A stretch of 64,000 bases of DNA from Spirulina sp. (GCA_044070495.1 JBIPSI010000006.1:64001-128000), one strand, 5' to 3'. Positions 3,872-6,411 are shown, counted from the stretch's first letter. Notes: generated by a model not told the origin, from the letters alone. Numbers and translations are program-made.

Positions 3872-4438
3872 ATGGGGAGAACCCTAGCGAATAAGAAAGA
3901 GATTGTGGGTGAAATTCAGGATCTCCTGAAGGAAGCTCAACTGGCCTTTGTGATTGACTACAAAGGGCTTAGTGTTGCTGAAATTACCAATCTGCGGAAC
4001 CGTCTGCGGCCCAAGGGTGCGGTGTGTAAAGTCACCAAAAATACCCTGATGCGGATTGCCGTGGAGGGCGACAGCAATTGGGAACCGATGACCGAGTTTC
4101 TGAAGGATTCCTCAGCCTTTGTGCTGGTGAAGGAAGACTTTAGTGGCGCGATCAAAGAATACCAAGCGTTCCAGAAGGAATCTAAGAAAACCACCCTGCG
4201 GGGTGGGGTGATGGAAGGTCAGGCGCTGACCGAAGATCAGGTCAAGGCGATCACCGAACTGCCGACGAAGGAAGAACTGATGGCCCGTTTGGCGGGTGCT
4301 ATTAAGGCCATGCCGACCCGTCTGGCGGTGGGTGTCAAGGCGGTGCCGACCAAGCTGGCGGTGGGTATCAACGAAGTTCCGGCTTCGCTGTCCCGTGCCA
4401 TCAAGGCGGTCTCCGAGCAGGGCCAGGACGCGGCCTAA
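3872..4438 (+). CDS. rplJ: 50S ribosomal protein L10
   Basis: MGRTLANK start after AAGGAGGT; DYKGLSVAEITNLR, KVTKNTL, LPTKEEL. Confidence 0.98.
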   Translation: MGRTLANKKEIVGEIQDLLKEAQLAFVIDYKGLSVAEITNLRNRLRPKGAVCKVTKNTLMRIAVEGDSNWEPMTEFLKDSSAFVLVKEDFSGAIKEYQAFQKESKKTTLRGGVMEGQALTEDQVKAITELPTKEELMARLAGAIKAMPTRLAVGVKAVPTKLAVGINEVPASLSRAIKAVSEQGQDAA

Positions 4439-4516
4439 AAGCCCTGGTCTGCTTCAGTTTGACCACAAGTCCGACAACCAACTTTGTTTTTTGTACACAG
4501 GAGTTAAGTCTTAACG

Positions 4517-4927
4517 ATGTCTGCTAAAACCGATGAAATTCTCGAACAGCTAAAGTCTCTGTCTCTGCTGGAAGCTTCTGAACTGGTTAAGCAAATCGAA
4601 GAAGCCTTCGGCGTGGACGCTTCTGCCTCCGCTGGTGGCGGCATGATGATGATGGCCCCTGGCATGATGGGTGGTGGCGCAGGTGCCGCTGCTGCTGAGC
4701 CCGAAGAAGAGAAGACCGAATTCGATGTGGTTCTCGAAGACGTGCCCGCCGATAAGAAGATCGCCATTCTGAAAGTGGTGCGTGGCCTCACCGGTCTAGG
4801 TCTGAAGGAAGCCAAGGAGATGGTGGAAGCTGCTCCTAAGGCTGTGAAGGAAGGCGTGACCAAGGACGACGCTGAAGCCGCTAAGAAAGAACTTGAGGAA
4901 GCTGGCGCTAAGGTGACCGTTAAGTAG
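4517..4927 (+). CDS. rplL: 50S ribosomal protein L7/L12
   Basis: [29 protein letters not shown]. Confidence 0.99.
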
Positions 4928-4960
4928 GTTTAGCCTAAGGTCTGACCCTCAAGGTTTGAG

Positions 4961-4992
4961 AAGCCTCCTGTCATGGTACGGGGGGCTTTTTT
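4961..4992 (+). terminator. Intrinsic terminator of the rplKAJL operon
   Basis: AAGCCTCCTG...CGGGGGGCTT stem followed by a T-run. Confidence 0.8.
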
Positions 4993-5033
4993 GTGGCTTC
5001 GCCCCGGTGAAGGGAATTTCCACCAGCCCCACC

Positions 5034-5063
5034 TTGACGAATGATGGTGCGACTCGCTAGCGT
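5034..5063 (+). promoter_or_regulatory. Putative sigma70-type promoter for the small basic ORF
   Basis: TTGACG-N18-TAGCGT downstream of the rplL terminator. Confidence 0.5.
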
Positions 5064-5120
5064 GAAGACTAATCATCATCAAATGGCGACCGAGCCTTTG
5101 GTCGCATTGAGGAGGACACC

Positions 5121-5342
5121 ATGGCGCAACGGTTGAAGCGATGGGAATCCCCCCGTCGCCCAGGTCGCAACGATAAGGGGCGGGGTGGCAGTGCCCGTCA
5201 ACGACAGCTTCGCAAACGACATCAGGAACTGCGAAACCGCCTTCGCCAGGGGGATACCCCTGCGGAGACAACTAGCACTAGGACGCACGATTCTGGGGAG
5301 GGCCAAGGCTCTCCCTTTTTTGTATCCTTGGATTGTTTCTAA
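5121..5342 (+). CDS. Small Arg/Lys-rich protein; candidate ArfA/BrfA-like alternative ribosome-rescue factor
   Basis: Strong SD GAGGAGG at 5109-5115; 73 aa, very basic; KGRGGS motif; terminator inside the ORF. The CDS is likely real; the function is inferred. Confidence 0.65.
   Translation: MAQRLKRWESPRRPGRNDKGRGGSARQRQLRKRHQELRNRLRQGDTPAETTSTRTHDSGEGQGSPFFVSLDCF
5295..5321 (+). terminator. Intrinsic terminator located inside the small ORF, upstream of its stop codon
   Basis: Stem GGGAGGGC/GCTCTCCC (one G-U pair), CAAG loop, then T6 at 5316-5321; stop TAA is at 5340-5342. Confidence 0.8.
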
Positions 5343-5364
5343 CTGCGCTCTCGGGCAGTTCATT

Positions 5365-5452
5365 CTAAATCCGGCTGGTTTGCCCTCGGTATCAGTGGAC
5401 GAGGAGACCTCGCCCCTACGGCTTGTCGGGTGGGGCATCAGGGTTTTCTAAT
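5365..5452 (+). repeat. Dispersed ~100-bp repeat family A with a REP-like core, copy 1
   Basis: AAATCCGG...GGTATC...GACGAGGAGACCTCGCCCCTACGG...GGGTTTTCTAAT; aligns by eye with copies at 6412, 11596, 16610, 29728 and 47371. Confidence 0.85.
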
Positions 5453-5795
5453 GCAGATTTGCTCTAAAAATAGATTGTTATCTTTGGGGTGTCGCGCTAG
5501 CGGCATGGACGATTGGTATCGGGAGCATTTGTCACTCGGCTATGGTCTACGGTTGTCTGGGTTAGGTGTTGAAGTTCTCTTCTGCGAGTTTGGCATGGCC
5601 CTAGGCTGAATCGGAACTCGATTGTTACCATAGGCGTCAACAGACGCTAGGCTAAATCGATTTAGGTTTAGCTAGTTTGCATCATGGATCGGGATGTCCG
5701 CCAATGGCATCCACGGGAGGCTACCCTTCTCCGGGGAGAGGTGATCCCACCTTATTCGCCACTGCTACTTCGCTACCCAGATATTTCTTGGTTTT

Positions 5796-6275
5796 ATGGT
5801 TAATCCCTCCGCCCTTGGTGTTGCGTTTTTGGTGCTTCTGGCGACGACCACGGTCGTGGGCTCTTCGCCGCCTACTCAACCCTCCTTCCAGGTTGCCCAT
5901 CCCTCCCTTAGCGACTTGATTGACAAGGACCCCATGGGAGGCAAAGCCGAGTTGCTACCAGCAGATACGATTCACCTCGATCAAGAGGGATTAAAAGAGC
6001 CCCAGTGGCTATCGGTACAGGTACCAGAGGGGGCGAGTTTTGAGGGAACCTTGGCGGTGAATGGTGAGGTCAAGTATCGCTTTGGGGCGGAGGGAATCCG
6101 CTTGGATCTGAAGGATATCCTGGCCTTGGGGGCAACGGACGTGGTCCTAGCCGGGAGCTATAGCCCTGGCGATGGGTCAGTTGTGGTGTCTTTCAACAAT
6201 TCAGAAACCACCGTACGTCAGCAGGTGGGGCAACGGGGACAGGTTCACTATCAGATTAATTTTTGGGTAGATTAG
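5796..6275 (+). CDS. Hypothetical exported protein
   Basis: N-terminal hydrophobic signal-like segment and beta-rich C-terminal domain; upstream of wza. Confidence 0.65.
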   Translation: MVNPSALGVAFLVLLATTTVVGSSPPTQPSFQVAHPSLSDLIDKDPMGGKAELLPADTIHLDQEGLKEPQWLSVQVPEGASFEGTLAVNGEVKYRFGAEGIRLDLKDILALGATDVVLAGSYSPGDGSVVVSFNNSETTVRQQVGQRGQVHYQINFWVD

Positions 6276-6411
6276 AGGCCGTCTCCGATGGCGTCTAGGA
6301 TCGAGAACGCTAGGATAGGCCTGATGATGCGGCGGTGTAGGATGTTGCGCTTCCAGGGTGTCAATCACGGCGGGTGGGCGAGGAATTTGCGACATTGGTT
6401 TGGGGCTAATC

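Follow-up and report, generated by a model that had tools for sequence, protein, structure and literature searches.

To our knowledge, only two proteins, ArfA and BrfA, are deliberately encoded on mRNAs that lack a stop codon, with levels set by tmRNA, and both have a narrow range. BrfA (YqkK) of Bacillus subtilis is encoded by 71 sense codons with an internal terminator and is produced as a protein of ∼62 aa, which is SsrA-tagged and acts specifically with RF2 (PMC6881298). ArfA (YhdL) of Escherichia coli is 72 aa long and repressed by trans-translation; a stem-loop leads to premature termination or RNase III cleavage of its message, and the full-length form has a hydrophobic tail (PMC8012679). 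Both factors have a basic tail that occupies the mRNA channel, and a Lys-His contact to 16S rRNA is common to them (PMC6881298). The authors of the BrfA study (PMC6881298) and a review from 2021 (PMC8012679) consider that further small, hard-to-find rescue factors probably exist. Table 1 of a survey from 2024, covering 162 cyanobacterial genomes, reports ArfA in 0 and ArfB in 90 of them (PMC11633108). Here we describe a small cyanobacterial gene whose best reading, by analogy with these systems and held with about even confidence, is a third and independent tmRNA-gated rescue factor on a non-stop mRNA.

The window, that is, the whole 64,000-nt stretch of Spirulina sp. DNA that was analysed, contains tRNA-Trp, secE, nusG, rplK, rplA, rplJ, and rplL in a row upstream of the candidate gene, and the protein genes were confirmed by Pfam. 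rplL is the final gene of the secE-nusG-rplKAJL row. The hairpin behind it has a loop of 11 nt, which is beyond the 8-nt loop limit of the terminator scan and left it uncalled; CACGGGGAGCTTTTT is found at this position in related loci. The features of the candidate locus are collected in Table 1. An earlier sequence-only reading had drawn attention to an open reading frame (ORF) with a KGRGGS motif (residues K19 to S24), a GAGGAGG Shine-Dalgarno sequence, and a hairpin followed by six T, and each of these was recovered in place. The hairpin comprises 9 pairs (6 of them G-C) with a loop of 4, and the surrounding 76 nt fold at -24.5 kcal/mol (z = -2.72). As the same reading had noted, the hairpin lies inside the frame shortly before the stop; the T-run spans codons 66-67, and the TAA is found 6 codons beyond it.

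Table 1. Annotated features of the candidate locus and its upstream flank, in window coordinates.
Feature	Position	Strand	Basis or remark
rplL (ribosomal protein L7/L12)	4517-4927	+	Pfam Ribosomal_L12 (2.1e-28) and Ribosomal_L12_N
Terminator-like rplL hairpin, AAGCCTCC ... GGGGGGCTT, plus T-run	4961-4993	+	Read off sequence
Promoter-like TTGACG (5034-5039), 18-nt spacer, TAGCGT (5058-5063)	5034-5063	+	Read off sequence
Shine-Dalgarno sequence GAGGAGG	5109-5115	+	ATG 5 nt further 3'
Candidate gene ORF	5121-5342	+	73 aa, ATG to TAA (5340-5342)
Conserved basic domain, residues 1-42, LKRWESPR..GRNDKGRGGSARQRQ..K...L...L	5121-5246	+	Alignments
Polar linker, unconserved, residues 43-58	5247-5294	+	Not alignable across lineages
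Intrinsic-terminator-like hairpin (5295-5316) and T6 (5316-5321)	5295-5321	+	Codons 59-67
Read-through tail VSLDCF and TAA (5340-5342)	5322-5342	+	Read off sequence

The gene had also been credited with its own promoter, and this holds in part. The TTGACG and TAGCGT hexamers are present, but a promoter consensus scan of positions 4400-6400 called 0 promoters, with this pair under threshold, and the boxes are common to the three closest loci only (L001, L002, and L021). Elsewhere among the relatives, GTATGAT or TAGCAT boxes are located at comparable distances, and from the sequence a promoter of its own is plausible. A Shine-Dalgarno-like tetramer is present at -18 to -4 in 58 of 100 related loci. 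The 5' leader contains an inverted repeat, GGCGACC...GGTCGC, just before the Shine-Dalgarno sequence (5085-5105), which by inspection is not evidently kept in the leaders of relatives. Downstream, at 5796-6275 (+), is an ORF of 159 aa without a Pfam match, followed by polysaccharide export genes; it occupies the same place in the nearest relatives (L002, L003, L022, and L024).

The product belongs to a sizeable protein family that is defined by its N-terminal 42 residues. A word-indexed protein search returned 1102 homologues at E up to 0.01; the named ones are annotated as hypothetical or misnamed, and the named sources are cyanobacteria. Members of the family are known, for example, from Trichormus (Anabaena) variabilis (WP_373867185.1) and Anabaena sp. 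PCC 7108 (WP_016953565.1). An HMM scan of 1.8 billion representative proteins gave 450 clusters at 50% identity, and all 150 matches listed begin, or nearly begin, with the conserved domain; protein lengths are 62-172 aa. Two alignments contain 17-20 invariant columns between residues 5 and 41, and the invariant positions are L5, K6, R7, W8, E9, P11, R12, G15, R16, N17, K19, G20, G22, G23, A25, R28, Q29, K32, L37, and L41. Across 97 distinct nucleotide versions of residues 1-42, the entropy at the three codon positions is 0.57, 0.35, and 1.42 bits, and 2000 random pairs differ by 32757 synonymous versus 14997 non-synonymous codon changes. The variable third position and the synonymous excess indicate that this domain is under selection as a protein. 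It is also where the strongly basic character noted earlier resides, with 16 K/R against 3 D/E and a net charge of about +13; the whole 73-aa protein has 17 K/R against 8 D/E. AlphaFold2, supplied with 40 sequences, predicted coil for residues 1-22, a helix for residues 23-42 (pLDDT 80-93), and disorder for residues 50-63 (pLDDT <50), at a mean pLDDT of 65.9. No functional name for the protein was obtained from Pfam, NCBIfam, a PDB sequence profile, or the ESM Atlas.

In an evenly drawn sample of 401 genomes from the phylum, 117 gave a profile match, with one copy per genome. All carriers belong to the class of the window's genome (117 of 186 genomes), versus 0 of the 215 genomes sampled elsewhere in the phylum. 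No member of the protein family occurs in one taxonomic family of 33 genomes, which are small (1.6-3 Mb). Members were also encountered on MAG contigs labelled Chloroflexaceae, Sericytochromatia, and Acetobacteraceae (loci L028, L099, and L100); since none of the 215 genomes of other classes match, these are probably mis-binned cyanobacterial contigs. A search of sequence runs for the locus returned metagenome contigs, which are uninformative about transcript 3' ends, and one RNA run containing 0.08 of the words.

To compare the architecture of the gene between genomes, 100 loci were collected by tblastn, 20 of them from genomes of relatives and 80 from named records (out of at least 578 genomic matches). 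This first set includes the window itself and some duplicates, and amounts to 94 unique ORFs. In a scan for hairpins with a T-rich tail, 98 of the loci were evaluable, as two ORFs run off their contigs. That homologues should keep a terminator before any in-frame stop had been set beforehand as the test by which the sequence-only reading could be refuted, and the hairpin ends ahead of the first in-frame stop in 97 of the 98 loci, at a distance from stem end to stop of 2-191 nt. In the one remaining locus (L018) the hairpin is perfect, but its T-tract is broken or weak. Among 20 extra loci, chosen as the most divergent matches, 18 have the terminator before the stop, which brings both sets together to 115 of 118. 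In two of the divergent loci, L141 (genome G408) and L147 (G268), the stop comes straight after the domain (50-51 aa) and there is no internal terminator; in L142 (G186) the N-terminal motif is lost or degraded. These three may represent constitutive or decaying versions of the gene.

The reading frame itself appears to be kept open up to the hairpin and no further. From the domain up to the end of the stem, no stop interrupts frame 0 in any of the 94 unique loci; 75 of them lack a stop in frame +1 and 23 in frame +2. Beyond the stem, the median distance to a stop is 43.5 nt in frame 0, compared to 40.5 nt and 38 nt in the two others. The stop in frame 0 is thus found at a chance distance past the hairpin, which argues that its position is not under selection, and this in turn explains why ORF lengths range from 62 to 128 aa. 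Gene callers accordingly show a "hypothetical protein" of variable length, and the family has so far gone unnoticed. The linker has a median length of 12 aa (range 3-26), and the predicted terminated product a median length of 64 aa (range 53-78). Read-through tails are unconserved and vary in length and in sequence among homologues, as had been anticipated. Hence, comparison between genomes shows a coding, conserved, and single-copy gene with a predicted terminator ahead of its stop codon, and a built-in non-stop mRNA is strongly supported by this arrangement.

The structure of the hairpin is better conserved than anything it encodes. The 97 hairpins detected in the first 100 loci comprise 86 distinct sequences, with stems of 7-14 pairs, a median loop of 5 nt, and a median dG of -16.5 kcal/mol. 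Equivalent stem pairs switch between G-C and A-T across loci, and the frame in which the hairpin begins (0, 1, or 2) depends on the locus. The varying frame and the many distinct sequences indicate that it is the RNA structure that is conserved, and not the encoded "GE..SPFF" peptide. RNAalifold gave 0 pairs on a MAFFT alignment of distinct hairpin stretches (62 of 73 listed), because stems of unequal length are out of register, and the evidence for the stems rests on folding each hairpin sequence separately.

We propose that the gene encodes a small ribosome-directed protein whose working part would be the basic residues 1-42, forming an extended N-terminus and then one basic helix. As the transcription terminator sits inside the reading frame, the mRNA would end without a stop codon, and the read-through tail with its TAA is expected to be missing from the terminated transcript. 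Such a non-stop mRNA entails gating by trans-translation, and expression of this kind is, judging from the gene's layout, quite probable. As long as trans-translation works, tmRNA-SmpB would tag the product with ANNIVPFARKAAPVAA and thereby direct it to degradation. Upon saturation or loss of trans-translation, untagged product would build up, bind ribosomes with an empty mRNA channel, and recruit a class-I release factor, which would free the peptide, as the candidate protein has no GGQ motif itself. We infer four steps here, namely termination at the hairpin, tagging of the product by tmRNA, ribosome binding, and recruitment of RF1 or RF2. That the product is a rescue factor dependent on a release factor is an analogy whose chances we rate as even. 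In its favour we count the physical type of the protein (small, strongly basic, and by prediction largely disordered except for one helix), neighbours linked to translation, and the presence of tmRNA, SmpB, RF1, and RF2 in a genome without ArfA or ArfB. Against the rescue reading we count the lack of sequence relation to known rescue factors, the lack of a basic tail and of a Lys-His pair, the lack of complementarity with ArfB, the presence of RqcH, and the two lineages with a normal stop.

The window's genome (G000, 97% complete) contains tmRNA, with the tag given above, and SmpB, and its only two genes with an RF-1 domain are RF1 and RF2. The RF2 gene has a CTT TGA C +1 frameshift site (L102, about 2440-2450 on the - strand, contig C43), which indicates that RF2 autoregulation is present. 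RqcH is present as well, so a back-up to trans-translation already exists. The ArfA profile PF03889 had no match in this genome at E up to 1, and a third RF-1-domain gene, which would be ArfB, is absent from it. Across the 186 genomes of the class, where a third RF-1-domain gene was used as a proxy for ArfB, 60 genomes with the family have at least three RF-1 genes and 57 have two; the corresponding counts without the family are 42 and 27. A distribution complementary to the ArfB-like gene is rejected by these counts.

The main rival reading retains the non-stop mRNA and its control by trans-translation, with a product that does not recruit a release factor. This product could instead occupy the mRNA channel and so silence or hibernate ribosomes, or it could report low tmRNA capacity within a stress or regulatory response. 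The same architecture, seen in 115 of the 118 loci, would serve such a protein equally, and the protein has none of the checkable features common to ArfA and BrfA; the basic C-terminal tail is absent, as residues 43-66 are polar to acidic (1 K/R versus 4 D/E), and the Lys-His pair is absent from the alignments, in which K32 is invariant but is not followed by a conserved His. Nor is there an obvious need for more rescue capacity, given an ArfB-like gene in about half of the carriers and RqcH in the window's genome. Moreover, basic, disordered peptides with one helix bind rRNA in many roles, and the candidate is of this kind. Nevertheless, we consider this alternative unlikely. An inhibitor made at the moment when rescue fails would deepen the shortage of free ribosomes, no regulatory target is indicated, as the protein-coding neighbours differ by lineage, and in the sections of PMC6881298 and PMC8012679 that treat non-stop-encoded proteins, these are rescue factors only.

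A more radical doubt is that the gene encodes an ordinary small basic RNA- or ribosome-binding protein, with the overlapping terminator resulting from compaction or drift. Gating by tmRNA would then be meaningless, and read-through, or release by existing pathways, would yield enough working protein. Overlap of this sort is common in the window's genome, in which 145 of 579 strong terminator-like hairpins lie inside a read-through ORF of at least 40 codons. The single-genome case is therefore not beyond chance, and the argument rests on the cross-genome comparison. The genome scan lists 99 matches, counted as hairpin and frame combinations (e.g., contig C43, 38669-38842, +), in which an ORF with 40-120 codons from start to hairpin reads through a strong terminator-like hairpin; these look mostly like spurious frames of a GC-rich genome. 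L141 and L147, with their normal stops, would also suit an ordinary protein, and so would eight loci in which the stop is found no more than 10 nt past the stem end and might, from its position, still be included on the terminated transcript. However, drift leaves unexplained why the frame is open through an unconserved linker and a hairpin in 115 of 118 loci. A normal gene could easily gain a stop before the terminator, yet only two of the 118 loci have one.

The composition of the hairpin arms also weighs against drift. Purines make up 88% of the 5' arm and pyrimidines 91% of the 3' arm in the family hairpins; for 141 other terminator-like hairpins, taken from these loci as controls, the values are 52% and 55%. 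In 71 of the 86 family hairpins, versus 14 of the 141 controls, the purine content of the 5' arm reaches 80% or more. A purine 5' arm paired to a pyrimidine 3' arm makes TAA, TAG, and TGA impossible within the arms, and this stop-proof design, which an ordinary protein leaves unexplained, fits selection for a translatable terminator. Common descent, or a pausing role of the GGGGAG-type arm similar to that of a Shine-Dalgarno sequence, are alternatives for the composition. The 5' arm (GGGGAG, GGAGG) does resemble a Shine-Dalgarno sequence. Taken together, we regard an ordinary protein as improbable.

The genomic surroundings vary between lineages. Location behind rplKAJL, which had been put forward as part of the description of the gene, is true of the window but lineage-specific; rplL is upstream on the same strand in 22 of the 100 loci, those of the window's lineage, and rplL linkage was rejected as a general functional clue for this reason. 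In 35 of the 100 loci, tRNA-Leu(CAA) is located upstream on the same strand within 700 nt, and in 14 of these the gap between the tRNA and the gene is only 21-41 nt. In L029, for example, the tRNA occupies 2883-2967 and the ORF starts at 2998, and L054 and L080 are similar. So short a gap cannot accommodate a promoter and implies that the gene is transcribed together with tRNA-Leu(CAA), which suggests a joint transcript from which tRNA processing would generate the 5' end of the mRNA. Among protein-coding genes, Peptidase_M48 is the one usually found upstream of the tRNA (20 of 48 ORFs), and FMN_dh is found in 5 of the 48; both look like synteny and not function, and were set aside as functional clues. 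On the downstream side, 13 loci from Nostocales have tRNA-Gln(UUG) next to the gene in the same orientation, and in general the downstream genes differ between loci and are often on the opposite strand. The recurring link is with genes of the translation apparatus, not with one operon.

It is highly improbable that the transcript acts in cis or as RNA, either as a leader peptide with an attenuator or as a small RNA with an incidental ORF, for although a short ORF followed by a terminator looks like an attenuator, tRNA-Gln(UUG) could be a downstream target in the 13 loci, and a screen in heterocystous cyanobacteria recovered terminator-bearing intergenic transcripts, several with small ORFs (PMC4734099), 42 residues are under strong purifying selection across the class and the downstream genes differ, often lying on the other strand. 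The sole small ORF described in the text of that screen, ncl0160, encodes a peptide of 23-25 aa with stop codons and is a different gene (PMC4734099).

Returning to the preferred reading of a tmRNA-gated rescue factor, its fullest version would be that most filamentous and larger-genome cyanobacteria carry a third independent family of non-stop-encoded, release factor-dependent rescue factors, whose genes were ancestrally transcribed together with tRNA-Leu(CAA), contain a stop-proof hairpin, and encode a protein laid out differently from those described. In this version the hairpin would be shaped to be translatable in any frame without a stop. We put this version forward tentatively, as somewhat short of an even prospect. 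If true, it would extend such a family over the greater part of a class within a major photosynthetic phylum, provide a concrete gene for cyanobacterial ribosome rescue, represent a third convergent use of the non-stop trick, and give structural biology a new protein layout to study. More such factors could then be searched for by the signature of this family, in which a conserved N-terminus is followed by an open linker, a stop-proof hairpin, and a junk tail. No ArfA- or BrfA-like factor from cyanobacteria was found by full-text searching of the literature, in agreement with the sequence-only reading, which knew of none; subscription-only papers and supplements (e.g., Table S3 of PMC4734099) may mention the transcript.

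In its proposed role the protein is similar to ArfB (YaeJ)/ICT1, as ArfB is a back-up rescue factor for non-stop ribosomes. In contrast to the protein described here, ArfB has its own RF-1 domain with GGQ; a Pfam search of the 73-aa protein gave 0 families at E up to 10, and the RF-1/GGQ domain is absent. The K-G-x-G-G core recalls the KGG repeat of ArfT/GsiB-like proteins (PF10685, presumably the ArfT-like family), and this profile had no match to the protein at E up to 10 or to the window's genome at E up to 0.01. We know of no non-stop control for ArfT. There is a likeness to ArfT of Francisella tularensis in general type, as ArfT is short, charged, and helical, and recruits RF1 or RF2 (PMC6514570).

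The ArfA profile PF03889 did not match the protein in the same Pfam search (0 families at E up to 10). Both proteins contain a Lys-Gly-rich motif, which in ArfA we take to be KGKGS, a string with 0 occurrences in the ArfA passage of PMC8012679. The two are further alike in length, in their hydrophobic read-through tails and, at the sequence level, in a stem-loop inside the ORF, which here would leave the mRNA stop-less. RNase III also cuts the stem-loop of arfA (PMC8012679), whereas the hairpin here is followed by a canonical T-tract. ArfA is furthermore restricted to Gamma- and some Betaproteobacteria (PMC11633108).

With BrfA the candidate shares a small ORF, a rho-independent terminator inside the coding region, an mRNA that would have no stop, and the size of the product (∼62 aa for BrfA and a predicted median of 64 aa here). 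A profile search against all PDB chains for a relation to BrfA or another solved rescue factor gave two chance-level matches (E 0.31 and 0.8), neither of them a rescue factor, and there is no detectable sequence relation to ArfA, BrfA, or ArfT/KGG. The analogy drawn by the sequence-only reading thus stands for the architecture, but does not extend to sequence, basic tail, or Lys-His pair. BrfA differs in being found only in part of the Bacillaceae, as against 117 of 186 sampled genomes of the class here, and in having its basic residues and Lys-His in the tail, where the candidate is basic at the N-terminus and polar in the tail; RF2 dependence is established for BrfA only. Like BrfA, the candidate lacks GGQ and occurs in a host with tmRNA and RqcH and without ArfB (PMC6881298, PMC11633108). 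The complement of rescue genes in the window's genome matches that of B. subtilis, which has tmRNA, BrfA, and RQC and lacks ArfB, as do most Firmicutes (PMC11633108, PMC6881298). The gene would accordingly be a functional analogue of ArfA and BrfA with an independent origin, and its basic N-terminal domain followed by a polar spacer, unlike the layout of either, would imply that it reads the empty mRNA channel, or engages the release factor, in another manner.
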